Source: an uncultured virus (IMG/VR IMGVR_UViG_2517287023_000001)
Taxonomy: Duplodnaviria; Heunggongvirae; Uroviricota; Caudoviricetes
Reading direction: 5' to 3' (one strand)
Virus record (IMG/VR): IMGVR_UViG_2517287023_000001
DNA length: 64,000 nucleotides
Below are positions 5,405 to 52,413 of the stretch, piece after piece; position 1 is the stretch's first letter; each line of letters starts with the position of its first letter. Under the pieces are notes generated by a model. That model had not been told where the DNA came from, ran no database searches, and saw only the letters and a program-made list of their open reading frames with translations. The position numbers and the translations under genes are program-made.

Positions 5405-5755
5405 TTGCTATTCCGGGTCAACCGCGATCTTTTTCGAGTGATGGGGCACGGGGCCCGTCTCGGGACCCAGGCCCAGGAGAGGCAGGTCGACGTCGCAGAG
5501 GAGGCGGCGGTAGCCGGTCTGCTCGCGTCCGGCGTCAGCGTCATCGTGGACGACACGAACCTGCCACCGGAGACGCTGGACACGTGGCGGCAGATCGCCG
5601 ATGCGGCCGATGCACCCCTGGAGGTCGTTGACCTGCGCGACGTGGACGTGGAGGTGTGCATCGCGCGGGATGCCGACCGCCGTGCCAAGGGTGAGCCCGA
5701 TGTGGGTGCTGAGGTGATACGTGCCATGCACCAGTCACAGCGGCGCGTCCTGTGA
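5405..5755 (+). pseudogene. Truncated polynucleotide-kinase/AAA_33-like kinase domain
   Basis: RVNRD, VIVDDTNL, CIARDA.R and VI..M motifs of phage Pnk kinase domains; no upstream in-frame P-loop. Confidence 0.6.
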
Positions 5756-6469
5756 TCACCTCGGAGTCGATGGCGCGTGCGGTCAGTGAAGGCGCTGGTG
5801 TCCAACGCCGTTGCCGCCGGGATGAAGGAGACGGCGCACACACGCACGGGGGATGGGCCCTTGACATCACCCGGTCATGTGCTGCAAGGTTAGGCGTCTC
5901 CACGAGACGGCACGAGGAGCGCCACCGGCGCCCGAAGTGCTAGCTCATCACCCCTATCAGGGATCGAAACACTCGCGGAGACAGAGGCACGAAAACGCGT
6001 TCGCCGAGCTTGGTCTCAGCGGACGCGTTTTTGCTGTTCGGCGTGCGGCTTCGGGTGCCACAGGATGGTAAAATTTCGCTCGCCGCCTACTCTCCGGTGC
6101 TGCCGCCGTGGCATGGCACCGGCTCCATTGCGGCGATGCGGGTCGTGCGACCTGTGCCGATTTCGGATGTTCCTTCCCTGGCCCTTTTGGGCCAGGGCTC
6201 CGAACTTTGCCCCTTGTGACCATGATGCATGGGGCCTGCCGGTGCGTGGGGCTCCCATCTCGAACCGAGCGGATGGGCCACCCGCTACGGGTGGGCCCCT
6301 CTCGCGCTGTCTCTTTTGTTTGCCTGTGGTGTGTGGCGCGGCCCGGGTGACCTCGACTGGGTAGTCGACCCCGCAGAGCGCGAGCCGGATGACGACTGGA
6401 CCCCTTGAGTGACAGCCAGCGACAGCAGAAACCAGTCAAGCGTGACCGTGGAGCCGGAGGGAGGACACC

Positions 6470-6859
6470 ATGCCGCGCAGTACGTTGGACGCCGTGAACG
6501 CCACCTGGGTTAGCCGACTCGTCGGGGAGTTGAAGGGCTCCGTGCCCGGAATGGTGCTGCTGGCACTAAACCAGGCTGATGATGGCGCGCTGGCAATCGG
6601 GGTCTTACGTATCCCGGTCGACTCGCGCGCTGGCTGGCACGGACCCCGGATGCTGCTGTCCATCCTGGCTGCGGCAGATGCCCGGGGCCTGGACGTGGTG
6701 TGCACGCCGACGGGCTCGTACGGCTCGGACAGGCAGGCTCTGGTCCGCGCGCTGGGCCGGGTCGGATTCGTCTCTGTGCCTGAAGATCCGTCCGGCCACA
6801 CCATGCGGCGCCCCTCACCGGCCCCCACGGTCTTTGATCAGCGCCGGGACACCGCATGA
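6470..6859 (+). CDS. Hypothetical protein (possible GNAT-like fold)
   Basis: RBS GGAGGA; 129 aa; overlaps next gene. Confidence 0.5.
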   Translation: MPRSTLDAVNATWVSRLVGELKGSVPGMVLLALNQADDGALAIGVLRIPVDSRAGWHGPRMLLSILAAADARGLDVVCTPTGSYGSDRQALVRALGRVGFVSVPEDPSGHTMRRPSPAPTVFDQRRDTA

Positions 6860-7695
6860 GCGTAGAGGCGTGGTCGTTGGTCGGCGGTATGGCCGGCGCG
6901 GTAACAGGGGTCGTGGCGCTGGCCGTCAGCGTCTACTTCACGCGACGGGCCACGCGGGCGGCCGAGTCCGCGGCGGCGTCGGCCCAGCGGACCAGCCACA
7001 TCGAGGTCCAGCGGCGGCACGCCGAACTCACGCCACAGATCGCGCTGTCGGCAACGGCTGACGTGCACGGGCGGGTTTCCCTCACGCTCACGCTCGAGGG
7101 ACCGCCCGGCGTGCATCTGGATGAGGTCGCCGTCAGCATCAGTGATGATCAGCCAGAACCGCCACGCACGGGACACCACGCCGACAACACGGTTTGGGGG
7201 CCCTACCGGTTCGTCCCCGGTGCCAACCAGCGCCTTGGGGCGAGCGCCGAGGCGTTCGCGCTGCGTCGAGGCGAGCAGCGCACCCTCGAACTGGAACCGA
7301 GCGTGCCCCCCGCGTGGATCGACCCCAGCGCGTGGGCGGACCGGTATGGCGATACCCCGATCCGGCTCGACATCCGGTGCACACGCGATGACCACGAGCC
7401 GTGGGTCACCCTCATGCAGGTGGATCAGCCGCAGGCGGTATTCGACGTGGCCGGACGGCGGACACCACACGGGACGTTGCTGCTGACGCTCACCAACCGG
7501 GGTAACGCCCCGGCCCGTGACATCACCATCGAGGATGAGCAAGGCGGCGAACCGCCGCTTGACGGCGACATGCCTGAGGTCATCCAACCAGGAGACGTCC
7601 TGCCGCAAGTCGCGATCATGAGCGGCTATCAGTGGGTGAAGTTGACCTGGACCGACCCGCGCAGCAGCCGTCAGTCCCTGACCGTGCGCGGTTGA
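6856..7695 (+). CDS. Membrane-anchored hypothetical protein
   Basis: N-terminal TM helix; ATGA coupling. Confidence 0.7.
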   Translation: MSVEAWSLVGGMAGAVTGVVALAVSVYFTRRATRAAESAAASAQRTSHIEVQRRHAELTPQIALSATADVHGRVSLTLTLEGPPGVHLDEVAVSISDDQPEPPRTGHHADNTVWGPYRFVPGANQRLGASAEAFALRRGEQRTLELEPSVPPAWIDPSAWADRYGDTPIRLDIRCTRDDHEPWVTLMQVDQPQAVFDVAGRRTPHGTLLLTLTNRGNAPARDITIEDEQGGEPPLDGDMPEVIQPGDVLPQVAIMSGYQWVKLTWTDPRSSRQSLTVRG

Positions 7696-37401: not shown

Positions 37402-37612
37402 CTAAACCCCCGTGCAGGTGACAAAACCGATCATATGAACATGCGCCGATGTGTTGCTGTGGTCCATAGTGTCAGCTCCATCGGAGGAACCGGGGACCGA
37501 CCCGCCGTACACCTGTACGACAAGTGCGTGGCGGGGCCTGAGGGAGCATCCCGAATAGCGGCAGCGACACTGGACAGGTTCGCCTACCAGTTCCCATGAT
37601 CCGGAGAGGCCG

Positions 37613-37861
37613 ATGACCGAAACCCTGACAGCCGAAACCGTCTGGCAACTGATGGACCTGGACATCGCTCGTGATCCGGTGATCGCCGTGTCGGGCTCCC
37701 TTGGTGCGTGCGCGGTCACGGCCGAGTTCGCCACGGCGGCCGGGATGGCTGTCATCGCGTCCCGGGTCGACATCGTGGCCCGATGGGGTGACGGGCCGAT
37801 CACCGAGCGGTGGTGTCAGACCGTGGCGGACGAACTGGCTGCGCGGATCACCGGCGTATGA
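37613..37861 (+). CDS. Hypothetical protein
   Basis: GGAGAGG RBS. Confidence 0.5.
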   Translation: MTETLTAETVWQLMDLDIARDPVIAVSGSLGACAVTAEFATAAGMAVIASRVDIVARWGDGPITERWCQTVADELAARITGV

Positions 37862-38108
37862 GCCTCACCCTCACCCCTGACTGCATGGAACACCATTGAG
37901 GGTCACATAAAATCCGCACAATGACGCTTGACTGATTCTATGTGACCGATTAGTGTGGGTGTTGGCAGGCAGCGAGCTTCCGAAGCAGTGCCCGCCACCG
38001 AGAGGACACTCAACCCCCGAACGGAGAAGCTGTGTACGTGACCCTCTCGGGGTCATGGCGGTGCTGATGATCCGCCACTTTGAGTTGCCGACCAAGGAGG
38101 TACCCGCG

Positions 38109-38390
38109 ATGACCGCACAGGACGACCAACAGGCGGCGGAACAGCGGATCGCCCTCAGCATCGCCGCGCACGGAGTCCGTTTGGATTCCGCGCGGCGGCG
38201 GACGGACTTGCGGCGATCGCTGGTCGAAATCGAGAGGGCGGCGGCGGAACTCTGCAAGGAGCTCGACACTGGTAGAAAGCTGTCTGGATCGGAACTTGTC
38301 AAGCTGGTGTCGCACGCCGCCACCGCGCAGTCACACGCGACCGCACTCTCTGTGCTGGAGTCCCTCGCGTGGGCTTTGCCCGATCAGTAA
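38109..38390 (+). CDS. Small helical hypothetical protein
   Basis: AAGGAGG RBS; downstream of operator 37908, directly upstream of the mini-array. Confidence 0.65.
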   Translation: MTAQDDQQAAEQRIALSIAAHGVRLDSARRRTDLRRSLVEIERAAAELCKELDTGRKLSGSELVKLVSHAATAQSHATALSVLESLAWALPDQ

Positions 38391-38474
38391 GTGGCCCCCG
38401 AACGGAGAAGCCGGGTACACACCGTGACTCTATGTCGCTCCTTCCCATCGGGTTAGGCGACTGCTAGCATGACT

Positions 38475-38643
38475 GAATTCCCCGCCAAGGCGGGGGTCAT
38501 CCGTCGCTTAGCACACGATGCGGGCATCACGGATTATTGTCCCCGCCAACGCGGGGGTCCCCACACCTGTGGGGGTGTATCGGTCGTTGGCCGTACCAGC
38601 CTCTTGGTTAGGGGCACTTCCCCACGCATGTGGGGGTGGAATC
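38475..38643 (+). CRISPR. Orphan fused double mini-array with degenerate type I-E-like 29-nt repeats and two 32-nt spacers
   Basis: Repeats 38475-38503, 38536-38558 (truncated), 38554-38582 and 38615-38643 have CCCCGC-N4-GCGGGG or CCCCAC-N4-GTGGGG cores; spacers 38504-38535 and 38583-38614. Confidence 0.8.
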
Positions 38644-38652
38644 ACAGCAGTC

Positions 38653-38677
38653 AGGACCCCCGGATACCGGGGGTCCT
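38653..38677 (+). terminator. Hairpin terminator closing the mini-array transcript
   Basis: AGGACCCCCGG-ATA-CCGGGGGTCCT. Confidence 0.7.
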
Positions 38678-38976
38678 AGCTTCTGTTGTGGTCAGTCGTC
38701 CGCGCGCACGCTCTAGGGCCCGGTCACTGCCCGGTATCAGCGATGTCCGTCCTCACTGTTCGCTCGCCTTCCGGGCCACCCACTCAGCCTTCAGCTACCA
38801 CCGCACGCACGGCGGTAGCGACCCCACGGGGGGATCGGATTCGCGCGGAACGGCGGGAAGCCGCCACCGTCGAGGCGGAGGTGACCACTACCGCCGACGG
38901 AAGAATCGCGGTAGTGGAGTCCACCTCTCGACTCGCACTCGCGGTCGCCTACAAGGCAGCGCGACGACCTCGGCGG

Positions 38977-39426
38977 TCACGCCGGTCGTTCCGGAGAGCC
39001 GGGCGGACGCCGGTAGGTGTCGATGACCGCGGCTTGGGCCGCCCAGGAGACGTCGATCTGGTCGCTCATGGCGCGCAGGGTGCCGAGCCTCGCGCGTATC
39101 AACTGGTGCATCTCGTCCAGTGCCGCCGCGGCCACACGTCCCGCGTCGGCGTCGGCAGCCCGTACAGCCGCGTGCGCTGCGGCGATCTTCTGCGCGCTGC
39201 CGTCCCGGCGCGCTCGAGTCAGCCGGCCCCGCGCGGCGCTCAACCGGCGCCGGGCCGCTTTGCTCTCCGCGTCGAGCTCGGCGAACCGGGCTCCGCCGAC
39301 GACGCTCTCGGCCTCGGCCACCACGATCAAGTCGTTGAGCTTGGTCTCCTCGGCCGCCTCGATCGCGCGGAGCTGCTCGCGTTGACGAGACAGCGGGTTC
39401 CGCGGCATCGGCAGATCGCCGCTCAC
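38977..39426 (-). CDS. Hypothetical coiled-coil protein
   Basis: Ala/Arg-rich helical ORF. Confidence 0.5.
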   Translation of the reverse strand: MSGDLPMPRNPLSRQREQLRAIEAAEETKLNDLIVVAEAESVVGGARFAELDAESKAARRRLSAARGRLTRARRDGSAQKIAAAHAAVRAADADAGRVAAAALDEMHQLIRARLGTLRAMSDQIDVSWAAQAAVIDTYRRPPGSPERPA

Positions 39427-39484
39427 TCGTCGCCGTCCGGGGTGGCAGCCGAGTCGAGGTCAACTACCAAAGGGATGTCCGTCT

Positions 39485-39829
39485 TCACTGTTCGCTCGCC
39501 TTCCGGGCCACCTGCTCGGCCTCAGCTACCACCGCACGCGCGGCGGTAGCGACCCCACGGCACGAATCGCACTCGCCGCACCGATCAGCCAACCGCATGT
39601 CGGCCAATCCCGCCAACACCTCGAACCGTTGCTGCAACTCCGCCTCGGATGAGGCGGACACCAACACGACCTTGAGGCCGGCGAACGACGTGGGATGGTC
39701 ACCCACATTGACCATCTCAGACACCGAAAACGCCGCCTCGTCGGCCAACTCCCGCATCTCTCCCACGGTGACGCCGAGCATCACGACCACCTGACCCGTC
39801 AGCGGGTCCGAACCCAATCTCCTGAACAT
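39485..39829 (-). CDS. Hypothetical protein
   Basis: AAGGAG RBS; its 3' end is duplicated near 38742. Confidence 0.55.
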   Translation of the reverse strand: MFRRLGSDPLTGQVVVMLGVTVGEMRELADEAAFSVSEMVNVGDHPTSFAGLKVVLVSASSEAELQQRFEVLAGLADMRLADRCGECDSCRGVATAARAVVAEAEQVARKASEQ

Positions 39830-41040
39830 CTATCGTCCAGCTCCTTCCCTGCCAAGCACAGCCGCCAAATACTCGGTCACCGCGTACGCGCCGACCTTCT
39901 GCATCGGATGATCAATCCACCGCTCCGCCGCCCTCAGATAGTCCATGACGATTGTCGAGTGCCGCGACCACCGTCCGGCATCCGCGATGCCCTCGATCGT
40001 CGCCCCTCGGCGTCGCAGCTCGGAGGCTCCACCGACACGCAGCGAGTGAAACGTGTAGGTGCTGGCGTGCGGGATACCAGCGGCCAGCACCACCGACTGG
40101 AACGCCATGTTAAGGCCCCGTGTCGACATCCGGCCGCTACTGTGCACCCGACCCCGCCCGCGTAGATGCTCCACGTCCCACCCCGGACACCCGGTTGTGC
40201 TGGTCGACAGCCCGCAGCAGGGGAGAGGTCCGGGGGCGCCACGCCCGATCAGATACGCCGCCCGCGCCAACGTCGCCTCCACCGGGGCACAGCGCCGGGT
40301 GGTGGTCACCCGACTCGGACTGCCAGTGCGGGATCAACGGATGCTCCGCGCTCCGAGCGTCCCAGTCGTGCCAGTCCCGACGTGGCCGTCGTGGGTTGGC
40401 ACACTCGCTCTGAGGCGTCCTAGGACGCGCTACCCGATGTGCCCCACAACTTCCAACGCGTGCAGCGGCGCACGTACCGCTGGCCCGGCGCACCATGCTG
40501 AGGCATCAGTGAACGAGGGGATCGCGATTGCCGAGTCCGATGTGCCGGACATGCTCGCGAAGGGCCTTGAGTCGTACCTGACGCGGCCGGCGCTGGCCCG
40601 GTCAACGGCGGCGGGTTGGTTCATTCCGTGCGCTCCTGACGTCCTCACCGAGTGCCTGCAACACCTGGCGGAACGTAGACGGGCACCGTCCACGATCAAC
40701 AAGCACAAAGCCGCGATCATGGCGTGGCATCGTTGCACGGACAACCGGTTCCCGACGGCGTGCCCGCGCTAGGTGTGTGCAGCGCGAGCATGAGCGTACC
40801 TTGGCGCGGCAGGGTTGGGTCAAGAAGCGTTCTTCCGCGTTGCGGATCGAAGACGCGGTGCGGTGTCTCAGTGTGTGTGACCGTGCTACTCCTCGGGGGA
40901 ATGCGTGACGCCGCGATGGTTTTGTTGGGTTTCGCGGGTTTGCTACGGGTGTCTGAGGCGCGGTCAGTTGATATCGGGTGGGGCCGGTGAGGAGGCCGAA
41001 GGGCTGGCGTTGCTGCTACCGGGCACGAAGACCAGTCGAT
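39830..41040. pseudogene. Scrambled Cre-like tyrosine recombinase relic
   Basis: C-terminus HSLRVGG..GRW..DY on minus strand (39830-40309); APSTINKHKAAI and RDAAMVLLGFAGLLRVSE fragments on plus strand (40630-40990). Confidence 0.75.
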
Positions 41041-41266
41041 CCCCAGCCGGAGTGTCGTATCTGTCGCGATCAATCCGGACAGTGGCTTTCCGGCGTTCCC
41101 TCGCCGAAAGAGGGGGTCTGTGCGTCGCCTAGCTGACAGCCCATCGCGGAGGATTGCCTACGCACCGCGTGTGCCGGCAAGATAGCCCGCTGCGGCCCGG
41201 GGCGAAATCGGGGGCCAGGACCGGCCGCCCACAGTGGTCCGACGATCTGGCCCCTCATGGAGAGTC

Positions 41267-41686
41267 ATGCGTACGAAACTGTTCGTGGCCAGCCTCGCCG
41301 GCTTGACCGCGCTTGCCCTTGCGTGCTCCAGCGGCGGCACCGACGACACCGACAGTCAGGGGTCGCCGGAGCAGACCGACGCTCCCGCCACGGCCGAGAC
41401 CACCGACAGCACGGCGGAAAAGACGATCGTGTTGGAGGTCACCGGCCCCGACAACGCGCGTGTGAGCTGGGTTATCGGGGGCGACCAGTCGCAGGAGGCG
41501 AACGCGACCCTGCCGTGGAAGGAAGAACTCACGCAGGAAGAACCCATCTTGACCTCGGTCAGTGCGCAGATCAAGAGTGGTTCCGGTGAGATCACCTGCA
41601 AGATAACCATCGATGGTGAGGTGGTGGAGGAGAAGACGTCTCAGGGCGACTACGCGGTGGTGACCTGTACCGGCAACAGCTTCTGA
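41267..41686 (+). CDS. MmpS-like lipoprotein
   Basis: Lipobox ALAC; LPW and ITCKITIDGEVV...VTC. Confidence 0.75.
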   Translation: MRTKLFVASLAGLTALALACSSGGTDDTDSQGSPEQTDAPATAETTDSTAEKTIVLEVTGPDNARVSWVIGGDQSQEANATLPWKEELTQEEPILTSVSAQIKSGSGEITCKITIDGEVVEEKTSQGDYAVVTCTGNSF

Positions 41687-41751
41687 CCTGTCACACACAG
41701 GCAGCACCGGGGCGTAGATCGGTAGCTGCCGTGTGACGTACGGTACGGCTC

Positions 41752-42216
41752 ATGGCTCACGACGACAACGCCGCACCACGAGACCCGTCGGGATGCAGCC
41801 CGGATGAGCTAATCGACCTGCTCACCGTCGGCGCGAGATTCGGTGGCCGCCCGACGATGCAGGCCGCGGTGCACCTCCTGACGTTCACCGCGTTCCCACA
41901 CCAGCATGACGCGGTGAGCATGCTCGAATTCGACAACGACGACGACACGGACGCGCCGGTCACAGCCGCGTTCGTCCGCGACTGGCCCACGGTGGAGTCG
42001 ATCGCGGTCGCACGTCGGTGGGGCACCGGCGCGCAACGGCTGGTCGCCCTGGCCGTGAGCCTGGCCAGCGGTGAGCCCGTCGACCTACGCGACGCCGTCG
42101 TGGCAGGCGGCCACGCCCACGCCCGCCGCGTCATCGAGGCAATGGCGATCGCCACCGGCCACGACGAGATGCACGCGCTCACGCCGACAGCGACGCTCGA
42201 CCAGCTCATCGGGTGA
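41752..42216 (+). CDS. Hypothetical protein
   Basis: 154-aa ORF. Confidence 0.6.
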   Translation: MAHDDNAAPRDPSGCSPDELIDLLTVGARFGGRPTMQAAVHLLTFTAFPHQHDAVSMLEFDNDDDTDAPVTAAFVRDWPTVESIAVARRWGTGAQRLVALAVSLASGEPVDLRDAVVAGGHAHARRVIEAMAIATGHDEMHALTPTATLDQLIG

Positions 42217-42270
42217 CGGTGAGCACCTAGCGTACGGCTCGTTGACGTTGCCGTGACTAGGCGCACCTGG

Positions 42271-42789
42271 TCACGGCGTCACCACCACGCGGGAATCGGT
42301 CAGCTTCGCGGCCAGCCAGGGCGGTAGCGCCGCGATGGGCCGGTTCCGGCTGATCGTGTACGGGCGGCCGTCGACAACGGAGCCGGGGCCCACGAGGTAG
42401 CCGCCGAGACGGCGGCCGGGAGCGCGGACATCGATGCCGGGCCACCGGCCGATCGAGCTGGGCACCACGCCGGTTGGGGCGCGGAAGTACAGGTGCAGCC
42501 CGTGTGCGGTGGCCACGGTGAGGGTGTCCGGCCACGGCCAGCGTGCCGCGGCGCACAGCGCCCGCAGGGTGTCGACACCATCGACGCCGTGCTTGCGGTC
42601 CAGGTCCAGCCCGACCACGTTCGAGGCGCGGCAGGCAACACCGATGTTGACGCCATCGGGCCAGCCGGCGACTGTCGCGGGGTCGGTCGTGATCTGGCGT
42701 GACCAGCCCGGGGCGGCGCCCTTGGCGCCGGCCGGCAGCGGAAACACTGCCAGGCCGGCAGCCAGCGTGGGTCTGGGGTCAGTCCTCAT
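42271..42789 (-). CDS. Bifunctional DNA primase/polymerase N-terminal (Prim-Pol) domain protein
   Basis: VFPL, NIGVAC, LDLD, GLHLYF, GIDVR and GGYLVGPGS motifs. Confidence 0.85.
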   Translation of the reverse strand: MRTDPRPTLAAGLAVFPLPAGAKGAAPGWSRQITTDPATVAGWPDGVNIGVACRASNVVGLDLDRKHGVDGVDTLRALCAAARWPWPDTLTVATAHGLHLYFRAPTGVVPSSIGRWPGIDVRAPGRRLGGYLVGPGSVVDGRPYTISRNRPIAALPPWLAAKLTDSRVVVTP

Positions 42790-43279
42790 CGTCAACGTCG
42801 TCGTAGCAGGTGCAGTCGTAGTGGTTGCGCATGTCGCCGCCGCACTCCGGGCACTCGTGGAGTTCGCGGCGTTCGTCGTCGTCCATGAACTCCTCGTGCC
42901 GCCAGCCCGAGCATCCGCTGTTGTAGCAGCCGCAGCCGGGGCACTCGGGGCACACCATGCCGTTGGTCCACCCACACTCCTGGCACATGACCTGGTTAGC
43001 GGGGTCGTCGTAGGCGGCCTGAGCGACGGGGAAGGTCCAGTCGTTGCGTTGCGCAATGTCCTGTATCGCCTCCACCGCGGTGACGGCCGTGGTCTTGTCC
43101 TCGCCGGCGTGGACCATGCGCAGTGCGACGGCCGCGCGGAAGGCGTGGGCCTGACGCTCGGGCTCTGGCAGGGTCAGGGTGGCGATCACGCCCTGCCGGG
43201 CCTGGGTGTAAGTTTCGCCGGTGCTGTCGCGGCGCTGAGTCGCGGCGCGGGTGAGCTTGCGACTATTTTTCGGCATCAT
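42779..43279 (-). CDS. Hypothetical protein with Cys-rich C-terminus
   Basis: CQECGW..CPECPGCGC..C. Confidence 0.65.
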   Translation of the reverse strand: MMPKNSRKLTRAATQRRDSTGETYTQARQGVIATLTLPEPERQAHAFRAAVALRMVHAGEDKTTAVTAVEAIQDIAQRNDWTFPVAQAAYDDPANQVMCQECGWTNGMVCPECPGCGCYNSGCSGWRHEEFMDDDERRELHECPECGGDMRNHYDCTCYDDVDDED

Positions 43280-43669
43280 CGCTCGTTTCGCGGCCGGGGT
43301 ACGCCCACGCCCGACCCCAACCGACACGAGATCCAATGCCTGACAGCAGTGCGAGTGGGTGGGCGCTGAGTCTGCGACGTCTTCTCCGTTCGCGGCCCGC
43401 CCCCGGCGTGGCAGGGATGGGCTCCCGGATCGGCTGGCGCGGCAGCCGTGCGGGCAGTGTAGCGCAGCCGAGTCGATCAGGGCTCGGTCCGTTGCGGGCG
43501 GCGCGGTTTGAGGCGGACCGGTGGGCGTGCCGCTGAAGGCCCTTGCCGGACGGTGTGGGAGGGGAGGACCCCGCCCCTGTGCGGGCACGTCACCTACGTC
43601 GGGCCGCCCGTAGTGTGACGTGCCGGGGTCGCGTGCTTACTTCCACGACCCCGGACCGGGCCGGTCCGG

Positions 43670-43847
43670 GGTCAGTGAAGGGCGGGCAATGCCCGCTACA
43701 GATGATCGACCGGCGACAGCCTCAATTAAGGGCTGCAACCTGCCTCAATGAAGGGCAGGTATAACACACCCGCTACAGATAATCGGCGACAGCCCAGATT
43801 AAGGGCTGCAACTTGCCTCAATGAAGGGCGGGATCGAGTCCCGCTAC
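43670..43847 (-). CRISPR. Orphan CRISPR-like array: three degenerate type I-G (I-U)-like repeats with two near-identical structured spacers
   Basis: Minus-strand repeats GTAGCGGG-stem-CCCTTCATTGAGGC at 43815-43847, 43742-43776 and (divergent) 43670-43699; inter-repeat 38 and 42 nt. Confidence 0.65.
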
Positions 43848-44260
43848 GGCCAGAAGAGTATCACGTTGGGCCCTGGTGTGTGCTCTGTCTACCTGCCGCG
43901 TCAGGTCCGACCCGGCGCGCGCCAGCAGAAACGGGCAGGCCAGAAAGGCTGCGGTGGCGGCGTGGGAGGACCCCACCCCTGTGCGGGCATGTCACGGACG
44001 TTCGATTGAGGGAGTTCTGGGAGCGCTCGTGATTCCGGGTGGGTAGCGCCGGCCCCACCGGCCACGATGAGGCGTTTTTCCTGCTCACCACGCCCGACGA
44101 GCGTGCGTGCGGGCAGCATGACTGACCGTGGGGGGAGAACGGGGTGACGTACCCGCACAGGGGTGGGGTGGGTCGAGCGGTGTTGAGGCCGTCCCCACGC
44201 GCGTCGGTGTCGAGTCGCCCCCGGGCAAGGGGGCGACTCGAGCGACCCGACACCGGGGGG

Positions 44261-44581
44261 CTACTCGCCGTGGCGCGCTAGGAGTTGTTGCGCGGCTAGA
44301 AGGTCCGGGGTCCATCCAGTGTGTGTGCAGGCCAGGACGAAGCGGTCGCCCTCACGGCGTAGGGCGGGCTGGTAGTGCCAGCCCGCCGCGATGATGAGCA
44401 TCGTCGGGTCGGGCGCGAACTCTGCGGGCAGGGGCATGGTCTCGCCCGTGCGGGCGAGCAGGTCGAGTACCGCGCGCCATGCCCGGTACTCCGCTCCTAG
44501 CTCGTTGAGGTCCACGGGGTCGGTGCCGTCGAAGGCAGTCGGTGGGTGTGTGCCGGGCGAGGAGGGCACTGCGCTACTCAC
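44261..44581 (-). CDS. Hypothetical protein
   Basis: GTGA overlap with upstream gene. Confidence 0.55.
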   Translation of the reverse strand: MSSAVPSSPGTHPPTAFDGTDPVDLNELGAEYRAWRAVLDLLARTGETMPLPAEFAPDPTMLIIAAGWHYQPALRREGDRFVLACTHTGWTPDLLAAQQLLARHGE

Positions 44582-45123
44582 TGGGTCCCTCCTCCTGGTC
44601 GTGGCCGCCCGTATCGGTTTAGGTATGCCTGGTCCAGAAGGGCTGACGGTAGTAGCTGCTTCAACGCGAGGTCTACGATCTCCTGTCGGTTGAGTGCCTT
44701 ACCCGTGACCGGTGGGGTTACCAGGCGTAGTCGGACGGTGGCATCGAGCGCATCGATGACGTATTGAGGTAAGTTGAAGCCGGCGAGCTTGCGGTCAGTT
44801 TCTGGGTCCACCATGTGGGGGCCCACCATCGCGGCGAGCGACAGGGCCTGCGTCACATCCCCTGTTTGGGGGAGGTTAGTTAACTGGTTAACCACGCCGC
44901 CGGATTGTGCGGTGGTGGCTGGAGTCTGCGCCGGGGGTACTTCCTGAGGCTGCACGTTCGCCGGTTCCTGAGGCTGCGTGTACACGGGTTCCTGAGGGGC
45001 CGGCGGAGGCGAGGGTTGGGGTGGGGCTTGCCGCTGTACCGGCGAGGGCGGCGGGAGCGGCGGCGGCGGGGGCGGGACCATAGGTGAGGTTGCACCGGGA
45101 ACCGGCTTCTTTGTGGTCGCCAT
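44578..45123 (-). CDS. Probable RHH-type partition adaptor (ParG-like) with disordered Pro-rich N-terminus
   Basis: Directly downstream of parA; C-terminal KLAGFNLP..VIDAL...NRQEIVDLALKQLL fits a ribbon-helix-helix. Confidence 0.65.
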   Translation of the reverse strand: MATTKKPVPGATSPMVPPPPPPLPPPSPVQRQAPPQPSPPPAPQEPVYTQPQEPANVQPQEVPPAQTPATTAQSGGVVNQLTNLPQTGDVTQALSLAAMVGPHMVDPETDRKLAGFNLPQYVIDALDATVRLRLVTPPVTGKALNRQEIVDLALKQLLPSALLDQAYLNRYGRPRPGGGTQ

Positions 45124-45155
45124 GGGGATCTCCTCTCGTGGCTAGACAGTAACTT

Positions 45156-45986
45156 TCAGTAGCCGATGGCCTTGACGAGTTGTGCCGCGTGCGCGGCGAA
45201 CACGTCCTCGAGGCGACGTGCGGACGGGTGGTTGTACGCCTCCAACGGCTGGGCGTCGGACAGTGCGGCGGCGAGGGTGTCGTACAGCGGCACGGACGGC
45301 GTCCAGATGAGTTCTGGGCCCCCGGCGGCGGCGAAAGCCTGCGGAAGGTTTTCCTCCTGCACCCTGGCCGTGGCGGACAGTTCCCGGCGGGCTTTGGTCA
45401 CGACGACCCCGACGACTCTCACGTCTTCCAGGCCCATAAGAACCTTGTTGGCGTTGAGGTAGGACACCACGTTTACCCCACCTTCGACCGCGTCGTAGTC
45501 CAGCTCGACGGTGATCAAAAGTCCGTCCGCCGCGGCGAGGGCGACGGCCATGAGGTGGTCCATGCCGGGGTCGGTGTCGATGAGGACCACGTGCCGGTCC
45601 TCGGTCTGGCCGCGTAGAGCAGCGAACAGACGCCGTTCCGCGCCGGGCCTGCCCGCTTCCAAATTGCGGTTTTGCATGTTGATGGCGTTCAGGGAGGGCG
45701 CTACACGGATGTTGCCTGTCCAGGGGACATCCCACTCCACCGGGACCAGCGTCTGGTGGTAGGTGATGTTCTTGGTGGGGTCGATCAAGTCGGCGGTGCC
45801 CGGGTGACCGGCAGCCGCCAACGCAGCACGGTCGATGCCGAACCGTCTCGTGGTGTTGCCCTGGGGGGCCATGTCGGCCACGTCGACCTGCCAGCCGGCA
45901 CGCGCCAGCGCGCACGCCAGCTCCCGGCATTGCGCGCTCTTACCCACGCCGCCCTTGTTGGAGTTGATCAGGATGGTTGTTGCCAT
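45156..45986 (-). CDS. parA: ParA-family partition ATPase
   Basis: KGGVGKS, DMAPQGN and VLIDT motifs. Confidence 0.92.
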   Translation of the reverse strand: MATTILINSNKGGVGKSAQCRELACALARAGWQVDVADMAPQGNTTRRFGIDRAALAAAGHPGTADLIDPTKNITYHQTLVPVEWDVPWTGNIRVAPSLNAINMQNRNLEAGRPGAERRLFAALRGQTEDRHVVLIDTDPGMDHLMAVALAAADGLLITVELDYDAVEGGVNVVSYLNANKVLMGLEDVRVVGVVVTKARRELSATARVQEENLPQAFAAAGGPELIWTPSVPLYDTLAAALSDAQPLEAYNHPSARRLEDVFAAHAAQLVKAIGY

Positions 45987-46310
45987 GGGGGGTCCTAACT
46001 AGGGGTTGGTTCGGATGGATGCGGCGGCGCGTCAGCGCCGCCAAGGTGAAGGGGCCCCTTCGTGGCTGGCTGCGTCCCGTCGCAGCCTGCCCCGAGGCTC
46101 CCCACCGTAGAGGCGTTGTCGGTGGGGAGCGGAAGCACCCCATCATGCGCTCTGAGCAGGTGGTGAGTGCCGGAGGACACGCGGCCGGTGGTGACGTCCC
46201 CGCACAGGGGTGGGGTGATGTACCCGCACAGGGGTGGGGTGATGTCACTACCGGCCACGTGTCCTCCTCGCCTGGTCAACAGGGCTACGCCTCAGTTGGT
46301 AGATGGTGCC

Positions 46311-46934
46311 CTAGCTGTTGCTGCGGGTGATGTCATGGAAGAGCACATCTACCTGCCCCAGGTACTCCTTCGTGCTGCCGGTGTGCCCGCAACGGGTTGC
46401 GGCTATCCCCGCAGCGTGCACCAGCTCGGCGAGCTTGGCGGCTATGCCGCCATAGTTTTCGCGGGAGGGCCCGTCGATCTCTCCACTGGCCATCGCAAAG
46501 ACCCCGGTTGCGAGCTGTTGCGCTAGCGCCAGCAGCTTCCGTAGGTCCGTGCCCTCGAGAGATCCGAGGTTGGCTTTCCCGCAGCCAACCTCGGTCAGCA
46601 GAAACCAGTAGTTGTGCCCGTTGGGCTCCACCGAGAACCAGCCACCCCACACGCCGCGGCGCAGAGCCCATTGCAGACGGGTGGGGTTGCCCTCCACCTC
46701 GTCGTCGGGGCGCAGGAGTCCCGGAGGGACCGCACTGGCGATGGTCTGGTAGTCGGCTTGCCCGCCGAGCTGCCACAGCAGCTCGGCAATGAAGTTGAGT
46801 TCCCGGTCATCTGCCGTCCCCTCATCCTGAGGGGACGGTTGCGGAAGGTCTTCCTCAGTGACGGGGGTGTGCCTTGAGGCACGATCGGGTCTGAATCTGA
46901 AGATTGCCGCTAGGCGGTCATTAGTGCGAACCAT
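46311..46934 (-). CDS. Hypothetical protein (possible winged helix)
   Basis: Cassette-driven (operator 47007). Confidence 0.6.
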   Translation of the reverse strand: MVRTNDRLAAIFRFRPDRASRHTPVTEEDLPQPSPQDEGTADDRELNFIAELLWQLGGQADYQTIASAVPPGLLRPDDEVEGNPTRLQWALRRGVWGGWFSVEPNGHNYWFLLTEVGCGKANLGSLEGTDLRKLLALAQQLATGVFAMASGEIDGPSRENYGGIAAKLAELVHAAGIAATRCGHTGSTKEYLGQVDVLFHDITRSNS

Positions 46935-47284
46935 GGGTCGCCCTCTCGGATTGAGGATTGCGGTGGAGTTCCAGCACCCCACGCGCCACCCACATTAGCG
47001 GCCCAGTAGAAGTTATGCAACTAGCTTTGTTGGTTTTTCGCTGATACCGGTACTGGCCTCGGTTGCATCCTCCTTTCAGGGGAGGTTAGTTAACTGATTA
47101 ACTAACCTCCTCTGTGTGGACGCTTCATCCCGTCGAGTGCCCTACCAGTCACCCTCAGTAGAGGGTCTGGTAGCGGAGCAAGCGCCATGACAACCTGAAT
47201 ACGGGGGCACAACGCCCCTCCCTCTGACATCAGAGGGAGGGGCGTTAGCTCTGACCCTTACAGCCCCAGAGTGAGGAGCCTGCA

Positions 47285-49713: not shown

Positions 49714-49995
49714 TTATCCGGCGCGTCGGCGCGCATCGAAAACGGCCTTGGCGTCCTTGCAGGCCCCGCACTGGCACAGGTGGTTGACGTAGCCGGAGTA
49801 GCCGTGCTTGATGCCCTCCACAATGTAGGGGCGGCCGGCGGCGTTCGCGGCGTCACGGGCGTCACGGGCCGCGGCCCGCTTCGCGGCCATGTAGTCGGCC
49901 TTGGCCCGTAGCCCTCGACGGGTGCGGTCCCGGCCCTTCGAATAGGCGCTGTACGCCGTCGGCGTACGCGAACCCTCGATGGTCGCGGTGTTCAT
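49714..49995 (-). CDS. Small zinc-binding phage protein
   Basis: HGYSGYVNHLCQCGAC motif. Confidence 0.6.
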   Translation of the reverse strand: MNTATIEGSRTPTAYSAYSKGRDRTRRGLRAKADYMAAKRAAARDARDAANAAGRPYIVEGIKHGYSGYVNHLCQCGACKDAKAVFDARRRAG

Positions 49996-51062
49996 GGCCC
50001 TACCTCCCTCGTGGTCTTCGCGCCGTTAGCCTCGATCAGTGTGACCCGCAGCGCGCCCCGTTTACGGCGTGTCGGGGGCTCGCAACTGTGTCGGCGAGCA
50101 TCGTACTCCCGCCGAACCCGCTCCTGATCCATCGTGTCTGCATCGCGGTCGCGGGTCAGCTTCCACGCGCCGTACACGCCGTAATCAAGGCCCGCGATGA
50201 CCGAGCCCCAGAACTTTTGGTCACGTTCGGCCTCCCCCTTGCGGACCGAGGCGTCCTTGTAGGAAGACAGCGCCTGCACCGCCCGGGGGTCGGGCGGATG
50301 TACCTGGGGGATCGCGCCGGCTACGAGCGACGTTTGGGCGCCGATCTGCCCGGGGACCGCGTCGGGGCCCCAGCAACGGCGAAGCCACGGACAGGCGTCG
50401 CAGGTGAATGACAGGCCCGGCCCGCGATCCTCAGCCGGGGCCAGGTCAGGATCATGCTCGGCGTATCGGCGGATCTCGGCTATCCGGTCGATGACCTCAA
50501 GCGCGGCGCGGGCGGTGAACTCCTCCACGATGACTTCCACCTCGCCGGTGGATCGGTCCATGTAGATCCAGATCGCCCATCGGGTCGGCCGCCCGCCCTG
50601 CTGGACGGCGAGGACGTAGCCGAGGACCTGCAACCGGTGCCGACGGTACGGCGACACGTGGTAGCGGATGGTTTGCAGCTTGTGCGCGCCGACCGTCTTG
50701 AGGTCGACTACCGCGCCGGGCGGCACCAGGTCAGCGGTGCCCGTGATCGCGACCCCGGCCGCGTGCAGGACCACGGGTAGCTCGACCTCGCCGCCCATCT
50801 GCTCCGACAGGCGGGGTAGCAGACCTTCGTGGTACCAGACACCAAGGTTGGCTTGCCGGCCCTCCTCCACGGGCGGGGTGTCCGACGGGTCGACGCGGGC
50901 CAGGGCGTACGCGGCGGCGCGGGTGCACCCGCCGATCGAGGACAGGCCCAGGTGGTGTGGGTCCCGGGCGCGTTGCGTGGTTTCGGCGATGAACGCCTGG
51001 GACACCCCCTTGGCGACGAGGGCGCGCACCTGGTCGGCGTCGGCGGTCAGGAGGTCGATCAC
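49992..51062 (-). CDS. Cas4-like / RecB-family PD-(D/E)XK exonuclease
   Basis: SSIGGC.R, GTAD, DLKT, Q...Y and CDACPW...C (four Cys). Confidence 0.85.
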   Translation of the reverse strand: MIDLLTADADQVRALVAKGVSQAFIAETTQRARDPHHLGLSSIGGCTRAAAYALARVDPSDTPPVEEGRQANLGVWYHEGLLPRLSEQMGGEVELPVVLHAAGVAITGTADLVPPGAVVDLKTVGAHKLQTIRYHVSPYRRHRLQVLGYVLAVQQGGRPTRWAIWIYMDRSTGEVEVIVEEFTARAALEVIDRIAEIRRYAEHDPDLAPAEDRGPGLSFTCDACPWLRRCWGPDAVPGQIGAQTSLVAGAIPQVHPPDPRAVQALSSYKDASVRKGEAERDQKFWGSVIAGLDYGVYGAWKLTRDRDADTMDQERVRREYDARRHSCEPPTRRKRGALRVTLIEANGAKTTREVGP

Positions 51063-52171
51063 CGCTGCTCGCCGCCCTTGGGAGCGAACGGGGGCCGGTA
51101 CTGGCCGCATGCGGGCAGATGGTTACCGGTGCTCACGATGTGCTCGAGCGGGCACTTGCAGGCCATACCCGTCGTCGTGCGTCCAAGGTCGACTACGGGT
51201 GTGTTGGGCACCCCGACGGTGGGTGGTAGCCCGTCACCGGGTGGGGTGTCGGCCTCCCGCTGGGCTTCCTCGGCCGCGACCGCGCGGTTGCCGGCGTTGA
51301 TTAGCGTGTCCTGCACGGTGAGCGGTACCGAGTCGACGGTCCCGGCGTACAGGCCATGAAGACCCAGATCCACCGCTTTCTTCATCTTCCGGCGGAGGTC
51401 GGCCCAGGACAGGGTGTCGACACCGGCGAGGAATTCCATCACGTCCGCGCGGGGCACGGCGTTCCCGTCGGCGTCAACGGCCTCAGTGGCCTCGGTGGCC
51501 TCGGTGGCCTCGGTGGGATCGTCACCGACCGCGCCGGTTTCCAGCTCCTCGGGGAGGTAGCCGAGACCTAGCACCACGTCCGGGGCGAATCGGCGGGCGA
51601 GTCGTGCCAGGCACCGCCACCACAGCATGTCGCCGGGGTAGCGTCGCCACCTGGTGGTTAGCAGCAGGTCGGCGCGCATCGCCTCCCGGATGCTCCAGCG
51701 TGCCTGCCCGCCGGGCAGGCCGTCACCGCGGACGAGCTGGGCGCACACCTCGTGGTCATCGGCGCGCAGGATGTTCACGCGGTGACCCGCGCGGACCAGC
51801 AGCCCATACATCAGGATGCCGCTCATGCCGCCCTTGCCGTCGGCGCTGAAGTGTAGGTGTGTCCACGCCACCGGTAAGGGGATGTCCAGCGCGATGGCGT
51901 GGCCCATCAACGCGACGAGATCACCGGGGTTGGCCCGGTAGTCGGTGGGGATGACGGTGCGTCCCCGCGCGAGAGCCTGCGCGTACCGCCATTGCTCGGC
52001 GGGCTCGAGTGGGCCCGCGTACCGGCCACGTAGTTGCACCATAAGGACCGGGTTCGGGGTGGTGGCCGGCAGATGAAGCCGACGGCCGGCAGATTTGCGG
52101 GCGCGAAGCTTCCCGGGGGTAGGTAGTAGCAGGGCCCGTTTGGGATGCCGGGCCCGAGGGGTTTGCGTCAC
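51059..52171 (-). CDS. RecT-like single-strand annealing protein
   Basis: IP..YRANPGD, W..YP.DML, ARRFAPDV.LGL.Y.PEEL. Confidence 0.75.
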   Translation of the reverse strand: MTQTPRARHPKRALLLPTPGKLRARKSAGRRLHLPATTPNPVLMVQLRGRYAGPLEPAEQWRYAQALARGRTVIPTDYRANPGDLVALMGHAIALDIPLPVAWTHLHFSADGKGGMSGILMYGLLVRAGHRVNILRADDHEVCAQLVRGDGLPGGQARWSIREAMRADLLLTTRWRRYPGDMLWWRCLARLARRFAPDVVLGLGYLPEELETGAVGDDPTEATEATEATEAVDADGNAVPRADVMEFLAGVDTLSWADLRRKMKKAVDLGLHGLYAGTVDSVPLTVQDTLINAGNRAVAAEEAQREADTPPGDGLPPTVGVPNTPVVDLGRTTTGMACKCPLEHIVSTGNHLPACGQYRPPFAPKGGEQR

Positions 52172-52413
52172 AAAATCCCTTTCAGTCTGGGTCTTGTGGG
52201 ACGCGCAGCACACGGGGCGCGTTAGACAGTCCGCTCGCAGCGTTGCTACCGTGGGCGTGCGACATCCCGCGAGGGGTGTTGCGAGGCGAGGCAGTTACCG
52301 ACCTCCACCTACGTGGCAGTTGGGGCGTGCTCGTCCTCTCGGAAGATCCGCCCTCCGTGCACCGTTCTCGGTTTTCCAGCCTTTGTCCGGGTGCGTCGGG
52401 GGGCGGGTTTCGT

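Follow-up and report, generated by a model that had tools for sequence, protein, structure and literature searches.

It appears fairly probable that the contig C2, whose first 64,000 nucleotides (nt) form the window analysed here (IMG/VR record IMGVR_UViG_2517287023_000001), carries two RNA cassettes directed against CRISPR systems (from clustered and regularly interspaced short palindromic repeats): a two-unit array of the Cracr type for type I-E, and a tandem of repeat mimics for type I-G. The observations that carry this reading, which was drawn from sequence, are the repeat mimicry and architecture of the cassettes, the homology that links one unit with an element of a host cas locus, and the surveys of CRISPR systems in the host and its lineage. 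C2 (78,320 bp, 67% G+C; the window is bases 1–64000) is one of the two contigs of the genome, the other being the chromosomal contig C1 (5.02 Mb, 70% G+C), and no overlap was found between the C2 ends. Its gene content includes a portal, a minor capsid protein, a large terminase, an amidase endolysin, a RecT-like protein with a Cas4-like nuclease, ParA and Prim-Pol (Pfam, PHROGs). Since phage genes occur together with ParA and Prim-Pol, C2 looks like an extrachromosomal temperate phage, i.e. a phage-plasmid, of an actinomycete.

The type I-E-like cassette (38475–38677, plus strand; Table 1) is made of two overlapping repeat-spacer-repeat units, one per I-E repeat class of the genus, with the stems CCCCGC/GCGGGG in R1 and R2 and CCCCAC/GTGGGG in R3 and R4. 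The 61-nt spacing of R1 and R2, and likewise of R3 and R4, means that 32-nt spacer-like segments, S1 and S2, are enclosed. A covariance model was built from 29 distinct I-E repeats taken from real arrays of the family. With filters switched off, its run across both strands of C2 (80,321 nt) returned 83 matches at E ≤10, just three of which were strong (R1, R4 and R3), the next best having an E of 0.076. R2 is absent from the plus-strand matches of this model, its hairpin being matched on the minus strand at 12.2 bits in overlap with the R3 match. The hairpin core TCCCC[GA]C-N4-G[CT]GGGG occurs four times in C2, each time within the cassette, versus twice in the 5.02-Mb chromosome. The R4 core is identical at 22 of 22 positions to a real I-E array repeat of genome G056 and has 100% matches in plasmid-borne I-E arrays of the plasmid collection; R1 is similar to an I-E array repeat of G081, and the region as a whole folds better than all of 200 shuffles (z −5.4). 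The upstream repeats that would give the handle, R1 and R3, keep a repeat-like tail, while downstream R4 is conserved in its hairpin alone and the tail of R2 is overwritten by R3. Tails kept upstream and hairpins alone downstream would be the pattern expected of processing into RNAs resembling CRISPR RNAs (crRNAs).

The homology of one I-E unit to a host Cas-regulating mini-array points to a role in counter-defence. Comparison of S1 with 24 same-genus cas loci (398,693 nt, both strands) gave one outstanding match, with 23 of 32 bases identical and a seed run of 14, and all 15 shuffles of S1 remained below it, reaching at most 22 identities and a run of 13. The match lies in genome G333 between cas3 (L138:7918–10752, minus strand) and cas8e (5696–7351, minus strand); it is exactly in register and is flanked by a degenerate repeat (left) and a hairpin that resembles a repeat (right). 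R1-S1-R2 aligns with this element (L138:7835–7924) without a gap at 63 of 90 positions (R1 19/29, S1 23/32, R2 21/29), and at this single locus 10 of the first 11 bases of S1 are identical, the mismatch falling on position 6. Between the same two genes, 108 nt upstream of the G333 spacer-like segment, an AAG-flanked site (L138:7753–7787) matches that segment at 16 of the first 19 bases and S1 at 15 of the first 19, or 16 of 32 overall. Many I-E loci of the family show mini-arrays of the form repeat/spacer-like/repeat in the gaps between their cas genes (inspection by eye gave at least a dozen), and the degenerate ones between cas3 and cas8e look like host regulators of the CreR type. The mini-array elements of G390 and G311 have the core GCGGGCA in common with S1. 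When S1 and S2 were slid along 46 family I-E loci (692,108 nt), nothing rose above shuffled controls, and the alignment of S2 with an element of G382 is unconvincing. The I-E loci with mini-arrays between cas3 and cas8e include L057, L063, L067, L127, L129, L135, L136, L140 and L142.

CreR and CreA are described as degenerate mini-CRISPRs inside cas loci that guide the effector to cas promoters, with CreR acting in repression, and elements of the CreR/CreA type are mentioned for I-E and I-U (10.1101/2023.03.10.532045). Cracrs are viral copies of host CreR/CreA which hijack Cas autoregulation and are found by their similarity to CreR/CreA, the search criterion being at least nine matches, proximal to the protospacer-adjacent motif (PAM), to the host CreR/CreA spacer-like segment (Liu et al., 10.1101/2024.10.29.618823). 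According to the same preprint, 64 of 219 Cracrs lie in 30 multi-spacer 'Cracr arrays', among which I-E two-spacer arrays are the commonest (16); within one such array the units are directed at different variants of a single type, and Actinomycetota is among the host phyla (10.1101/2024.10.29.618823).

The I-E cassette appears to fit this description of Cracr arrays closely. As in these arrays, repeat-like units flank spacer-like segments and are encoded by a phage or plasmid outside a cas locus; several units are stacked in what would be one transcription unit, seemingly aimed at variants of one subtype; and unit 1 is homologous to a CreR-like element of a host cas locus, which is how the authors of the preprint found their Cracrs. 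The cassette is unlike the described arrays in that its units use two repeat classes and overlap by 11 nt, in that its target promoter is only putative, and in that C2 carries a second cassette for another subtype (I-G) 5 kb away. With CreR/CreA as described, it has in common the layout of repeat-like, spacer-like and repeat-like parts and, putatively, a partial complementarity near a cas promoter; however, those elements are located within host cas loci and work for the host, whereas the C2 cassettes lie on a phage-plasmid on which no cas genes were found.

In a host with a type I-E system, cleavage by Cas6e at the four hairpins would yield two crRNA-like RNAs. In each, R1 or R3 would provide the 5' handle and R2 or R4 the 3' hairpin, with a spacer-like segment of 32 nt between them. 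Loaded into Cascade, these RNAs would compete with genuine crRNAs, and would steer Cascade to the partly complementary site near the cas promoter, copying the host mini-array and leading to tighter cas repression. Since the two units are built on two I-E repeat classes, each may be aimed at a different I-E variant.

Mini-arrays with one or two spacers are borne by viruses that lack cas genes; their spacers match related viruses and they are used in virus-virus conflicts. The I-E cassette might likewise be an offensive mini-CRISPR array that borrows the host I-E Cascade and Cas3 against competing phages or plasmids, i.e. for superinfection exclusion, and its repeat-spacer-repeat layout, canonical 32-nt spacers, 61-nt phasing, handle-giving tails kept on the upstream repeats and terminator would all suit such a function, for which virus-borne precedents are known. 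We nevertheless regard it as quite unlikely. No spacer target of S1 or S2 is contained in the cassette-query matches from 50,697 phage records or 72,556 plasmids; no match beyond their own place was found in the host genome or in the loci compared with it; and the 20-base PAM-proximal patterns of both segments, with sixth positions free, gave zero exact matches in IMG/VR, where, as in the other databases, targets may be lacking. Unlike the spacers of known virus-borne mini-arrays, S1 resembles a host regulatory spacer-like segment, and homology to a regulatory element of a host cas locus is unexpected for adaptive spacers.

The second cassette proposed to be directed against CRISPR (43670–43850, minus strand) resembles the repeats of type I-G, formerly named I-U. 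It consists of five I-G-like units placed back to back with a 73-nt period, and the 14-mer handle CCCTTCATTGAGGC is exact in two of them. A DNA search with 43274–44260 in 301 family genomes gave matches of 22–29 nt in five genomes, where they fall in long CRISPR arrays with the 36-nt repeat GTCGCAGCTC..GAGCTGCCCTTCATTGAGGC. In G133 and G163 the arrays of this repeat adjoin cas7g, csb2, cas3g, cas4-cas1 and cas2, and the repeat is therefore of type I-G. A covariance model of seven real I-G repeats, run over C2, gave 19 matches at E ≤5, of which three are significant and lie in the cassette, the next best having an E of 0.65. The fold of the cassette is better than that of 199 out of 200 shuffles (z −4.3). 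Its A units keep the handle, exactly in A1 and A2 and in degenerate form in A0, and its B units keep the repeat 5' end and the stem. The 'spacers' are about 90% alike and are themselves repeat-like, and the I-G cassette is thus not an ordinary array. More generally, the two cassettes depart from bona fide CRISPR arrays, in which near-identical repeats, unique spacers, a leader and, as a rule, neighbouring cas genes are found: the repeats differ within a cassette, the I-G 'spacers' are alike, and no cas genes were found on C2.

Racrs, as described in PMC10651486, are solitary repeat units of phages and plasmids which mimic CRISPR repeats, have been validated for I-C, I-E, I-F and V-A, and often lie beside anti-CRISPR (acr) genes; SRUFinder sets aside matches clustering within 100 bp as arrays or mini-arrays, and the term I-G is absent from the main text of that paper. 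Both C2 cassettes are like Racrs in mimicking repeat sequence and hairpin on a mobile element, and the I-G cassette, having no independent spacers, fits a decoy; they are unlike Racrs in that the units are not solitary, with four I-E units packed into 170 nt and five I-G units into 180 nt. The targets listed for Cracrs are V-A, I-F, I-E, I-C and I-B, and I-G is not among them (10.1101/2024.10.29.618823). The I-G cassette seems to fit neither the Racr nor the Cracr class cleanly and would be a novel-looking tandem of repeat mimics.

The RNA of the I-G cassette may soak up or mis-assemble I-G Cas proteins in the manner of a Racr-like decoy, or may act as an I-G Cracr. Solitary handle-bearing I-G-like units are also present within I-G cas loci of the family, at L144:12167–12194 (G390), L046:7022–7051 (G133) and L050:9591–9641 (G163), with 23.8, 24 and 15 bits, respectively. 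They score comparably to the phage A units, their spacer-like parts are dissimilar, and they are possible Cas-regulating RNAs of type I-G. In the same-genus genome G311 (C100:2027–2040, L096) a single exact handle CCCTTCATTGAGGC was seen, with no array around it within 3 kb. It is conceivable, though doubtful, that the I-G cassette represents a new RNA anti-CRISPR architecture, a spacer-less tandem with the repeat features split between alternating units, which together with the I-E array would amount to RNA-only countermeasures against the CRISPR repertoire of the genus. In such an architecture the Cas6-type stem would be carried by the B units, and in the A units the exact 5'-handle sequence would follow an unrelated hairpin. 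Csb2, a Cas5-Cas6 fusion, would then process the tandem into 'crRNAs' with a repeat-like guide, which would either hold I-G Cas proteins in unproductive complexes or direct the I-G effector against the repeats of the host's own array.

Alternatively, the tandem at 43670–43850 could act as DNA, as iterons, an origin or a partition site for Rep/Par, with its likeness to I-G repeats being incidental. Its position in the 990-bp gap between the Prim-Pol and par operons is consistent with this, as are the short sub-repeats at 23-nt spacing within the 73-nt tandem, the two copies of a 38-nt par-associated motif that bracket it, and the fact that rep-module homology to another contig of the genus (G344:C21) ends just before it. 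We give this explanation little credence, because an I-G handle identity of 14–15 nt is found twice, plus a variant copy; because the three significant matches to the I-G model fall here and none elsewhere in 80 kb; because A2, at 36 nt, is exactly as long as a real repeat and the 73-nt period is that of an I-G repeat plus spacer; and because the loops vary while the stems are kept.

The 38-nt motif itself, to judge from its placement, probably serves the plasmid backbone as a parS, iteron or operator site. Its sequence CCCGCACAGGGGTGGGG has eight window matches at ≤3 mismatches versus 1.45 expected, five of them with ≤1 mismatch (43569, 43971, 44152, 46199 and 46223); another two, weaker, fall within R3 and R4. 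The close copies lie in tandem upstream of parA (two), just downstream of the par operon (one) and between the par and rep operons (two), so distributed that several copies of a short motif flank or precede partition or replication genes, as for parS sites and iterons, and the motif stands on both sides of the I-G cassette. As a CRISPR mimic the motif was rejected, having scored 9.2 bits (E 1.2) with the I-E model and being array-like in 0 of 301 family genomes.

An earlier note on this DNA had proposed mimics of up to three repeat families; the covariance models bear out the I-E (in two classes) and I-G families at a level far beyond chance, and the third, the 38-nt motif (43562, 43964 and 44143), proved not to be CRISPR-like. 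The note had rightly stated that the window holds three small open reading frames (ORFs; 38109–38390, 38977–39426 and 39485–39829) and that it lacks a cas operon: no cas operon and no cognate cas genes were found when 83 ORFs of the window were scanned with Pfam and 23 ORFs of 33.9–53.3 kb with PHROGs, the ORFs of the C2 tail (64,001–78,320) being unscanned. The sole cas-related match in the window is a Cas4-like PD-(D/E)XK nuclease (PHROG 1706, labelled 'CRISPR/Cas system associated') adjoining a RecT-like gene (49992–52213); the nuclease and the RecT-like annealing protein are a phage recombination pair and not a CRISPR component. Rfam gave zero families at gathering score in the window, and none of its 11 matches at E ≤10 within 37500–47000 is a CRISPR family.

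The CRISPR systems of the resident host and of its genus differ in what they offer as targets. The host chromosome carries a type I-C system, with 34 repeats adjoining cas3, cas8c, cas7, cas4 and cas1, and a variant type I-G system, with two arrays flanking cas3g, cas8g (csx17) and csb2. Cas7e was found in 35 of the 151 family genomes searched (the own genome, without Cas7e, being counted in the 151) and in 17 of 120 other same-genus genomes, and both I-E repeat classes are present in the genus. Arrays with the exact handle CCCTTCATTGAGGC occur in three of the 120 same-genus genomes (G364, G390 and G391), two of which, G390 and G391, carry both I-E and I-G. No mimic of the I-C repeat on C2 exceeded a Markov null, and local alignment of the host I-G and I-C repeats to C2 placed nothing in the region among the top matches. 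Given that the host has I-C and a variant I-G and no I-E, the toolkit fits the genus-wide repertoire and not the resident host. The idea that the element carries an RNA toolkit against several coexisting host systems thus stands as to mimics for more than one subtype, and falls as to the coexistence of the targeted systems in this host; the condition named in the note as refuting it, a lineage lacking I-E/I-G, does not apply, as both are present in the lineage. Both cassettes sit in an accessory and plasmid-maintenance region and appear to be tuned to the repertoire of the genus rather than to the present host.

It is also improbable that both cassettes are inert debris, decaying fragments of CRISPR arrays or cas-locus mini-arrays recombined from former hosts, as might be thought from the absence of I-E in the present host, from junkyard surroundings (the integrase pseudogene remnants at 39830–41130 and the 91-nt direct repeats around the 149-aa ORF) and from the absence of either cassette in 40 kb examined of the nearest rep-module relative, since the hairpins are intact in nine of nine units, tail conservation follows function (R1 and R3 at full length, R4 with the hairpin alone), the two repeat classes stand head to tail and have one terminator in common, and the I-G stems have changed while the handle stayed exact in two units and near-exact in a third, which speaks for selection rather than drift.

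Several observations weigh against the reading of the two cassettes as RNA counter-CRISPR elements. The transcription, processing, Cas binding and inhibitory effect of the cassettes are steps that we infer. S1 and S2 have the canonical spacer length of 32 nt, as opposed to the 21–24 nt of the spacer-like segments in the Salmonella Cracr array described as tested. The support for S1 comes from one locus, with a partial target that has two effective mismatches and an unmapped promoter, and for S2 neither a cognate nor a target turned up in 70 cas loci (46 family and 24 same-genus). The whole host genome (99.99% complete) contains no Cas7e or Cas6e and hence no I-E system, so that the I-E cassette is without a target there. 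The host I-G repeat is unlike the mimic: the 8-nt handle, ATTGCGGC versus ATTGAGGC, matches at seven of eight positions, with no relation between the two hairpins. Beyond the repeats, none of the 24 same-genus cas loci (three of them I-G) matches the spacer-like parts of the I-G cassette, and the cassette occupies part of the 990-bp non-coding gap that separates the rep and par operons, a place in which repeats acting as DNA are to be expected.

Neither cassette was found on any related element in the phage, plasmid, IMG/VR, GTDB and metagenome searches or on G344:C21, which likewise counts against the reading. The phage collection holds four records related to C2, each through a match of 83–87 nt only, and in the plasmid collection the match to C2 is confined to the Prim-Pol region. 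IMG/VR, searched by protein and by junction pattern, and the metagenomes gave no related element. In the GTDB genomes the I-E junction pattern had 0 matches and the I-G junction pattern 26; the one inspected is a real I-G array of Actinoplanes regularis, and the other 25 are judged to be chance matches from their unrelated taxa and the expected count.

RNA-based anti-CRISPRs (Racr, Cracr) have been described recently and mostly in Proteobacteria, and C2 would be a clear actinobacterial case. If the proposed roles are correct, one mobile element stacks RNA mimics against two subtypes and two repeat classes, and mimicry extends to type I-G, whose Cas5-Cas6 fusion handles RNA differently. The toolkit would then track the CRISPR repertoire of the host genus and not that of the current host, which bears on host range and on how pan-immunity shapes counter-defence. 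Unit 1 of the phage and the host-type regulatory mini-array of a same-genus strain would form a directly testable pair, and compact cassettes of this kind could serve as multiplexed guide scaffolds.

Table 1. Positions of the two cassettes and of neighbouring features in the window (aa, amino acids)
Feature	Position	Strand	Description
Putative promoter of the unit of the 93-aa ORF and I-E cassette	37928–37956	+	TTGACT, 17-nt spacer, TAGTGT; proposed by eye
ORF, 93 aa (P0001)	38109–38390	+	Directly upstream of the I-E cassette; orphan
R1	38475–38503	+	Full-length I-E repeat mimic, CCCCGC class; hairpin; 3' tail GTCATCCG as would-be 5' handle of S1; 31.7 bits, E 1.4e-9, model positions 1–29
S1	38504–38535	+	32-nt spacer-like segment between R1 and R2
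R2	38536–38564	+	I-E-like hairpin, CCCCGC class; tail replaced by the start of R3 (11-nt overlap)
R3	38554–38582	+	Full-length I-E repeat mimic, CCCCAC class; tail GTGTATCG; 23.0 bits, E 3.9e-6, model positions 1–29
S2	38583–38614	+	32-nt spacer-like segment between R3 and R4
R4	38615–38643	+	I-E-like hairpin, CCCCAC class; tail not repeat-like; 23.9 bits, E 1.8e-6, model positions 5–24 only
Terminator-like hairpin	38653–38677	+	11 bp, 9 of them G-C, then T-rich tail; ends the I-E cassette
ORF, 149 aa (P0002)	38977–39426	−	Three homologues, 66–70% identity
ORF, 114 aa (P0003)	39485–39829	−	One homologue, 73% identity
Replication module	42271–43273	−	163-aa Cys-rich protein (43273–42779), then 172-aa Prim-Pol protein (42789–42271); PF09250, E 1.3e-31; PHROG 5852
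38-nt motif, copy 1	43562–43599	+	Core CCCGCACAGGGG[C/T]GGGG on the minus strand
Strong hairpin	43640–43680	−	Stem of 13 bp, at the I-G cassette's 3' end on this strand; may be a terminator or serve in processing
A0	43670–43701	−	GCGGGC/GCCCGC hairpin and degenerate handle CCCTTCACTGACC
B1	43702–43741	−	I-G-repeat-like start GTTGCAGCC, hairpin with GGCTG, variant handle CCCTTAATTGAGGC; 17.0 bits, E 0.0087 (match 43719–43739)
A1	43742–43778	−	8-bp hairpin and exact handle CCCTTCATTGAGGC; 26.5 bits, E 8.8e-6 (match 43742–43790)
B2	43779–43814	−	GTTGCAGCCC-TTAATCT-GGGCTG hairpin; mimic of I-G repeat 5' end and stem, no handle; about 90% identical to B1
A2	43815–43850	−	36 nt; 25/36 identical to the G390 repeat; 5' GCCG.AGC and last 15 nt kept, stem-loop replaced; 24.6 bits, E 3.7e-5
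38-nt motif, further copies	43964–44001; 44143–44169 (inverted)		
ParA-like partition ATPase	45156–45986	−	PF13614, E 1.4e-19; PF01656; PHROG 164
24-nt tandem of the motif	46190–46246		2.4 copies, just upstream of parA

The 93-aa ORF upstream of the I-E cassette is probably co-transcribed with it; a consensus promoter scan returned 0 promoter-like sites, and the putative promoter at 37928–37956 was accordingly not flagged by it. P0001 belongs to no Pfam or PHROG family and had no homologue in a word-indexed search of a collection of 5.8 billion proteins. Its AlphaFold model consists of two long helices in a hairpin (predicted local distance difference test score, pLDDT, 88.5), a fold that matches only generic coiled-coil. 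P0002 and P0003 likewise belong to no family (Pfam, PHROGs), and none of the three proteins has a sequence match in the PDB. All three ORFs are candidates for anti-CRISPR (Acr) proteins by position only.

The replication module appears to be a portable cassette. It resembles the prim-pol regions of small Streptomyces plasmids, and window positions 42230–43469, which comprise the Prim-Pol module and a leader of about 200 nt, are 84% identical to G344:C21:12712–13966. The latter lies on a 71-kb same-genus contig that has nothing else in common with C2, and no I-E- or I-G-like unit was found in the 40 kb of it examined. The 181-aa ORF adjoining parA has no sequence match in the PDB.

A 16-nt motif, CCCCGAACGGAGAAGC, is present at 38015–38030 and 38396–38411 (plus strand) and at 43380–43395 (minus strand), about 80–110 nt upstream of the 93-aa ORF, the I-E cassette and the rep operon, and may be a shared leader or regulatory site. 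Two copies are exact and the third has two mismatches; the count at ≤3 mismatches is not above chance (4 of 100 shuffles attain it).

Of the 51 spacers extracted from the host (33 of the I-C array, 18 of the I-G arrays), two match C2:75595–75629 (L001:13596–13630) at 34 of 35 positions, which is evidence of conflict between host and element; they are identical to each other and belong to the I-C array (C1:1457977–1458011 and C1:1458126–1458160). The I-C array was taken to be transcribed from its cas2 side, where the leader is AT-rich, towards the far end, where repeats are degenerate, and in this direction the flanks of the protospacer are GGC (5') and GAA (3'). The canonical I-C PAM is TTC, and a TTC flank appears at the C2 protospacer only if the spacer is read in the opposite direction. 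The match may represent a tolerated self-target or hint at an inhibitor of I-C on C2. In the host I-G locus (C1:1545000–1578000, L002–L004) no cas1, cas2 or cas4 was seen among the scanned flank ORFs, and insertion sequence (IS) transposases lie at its borders.

Direct repeats of 91 nt (38739–38829 and 39471–39560, 90–97% identical) bracket the 149-aa ORF, one copy forming the 3' end of the 114-aa ORF, which suggests insertion of a cassette or a duplication. Next to them, remnants of tyrosine recombinases occupy both strands of 39830–41130, with a C-terminal fragment at 39830–40309 (minus strand, PF00589) and a frameshifted integrase-like reading, recognised by eye, at 40509–41130 (plus strand); they mark a decayed mobile-element junction.

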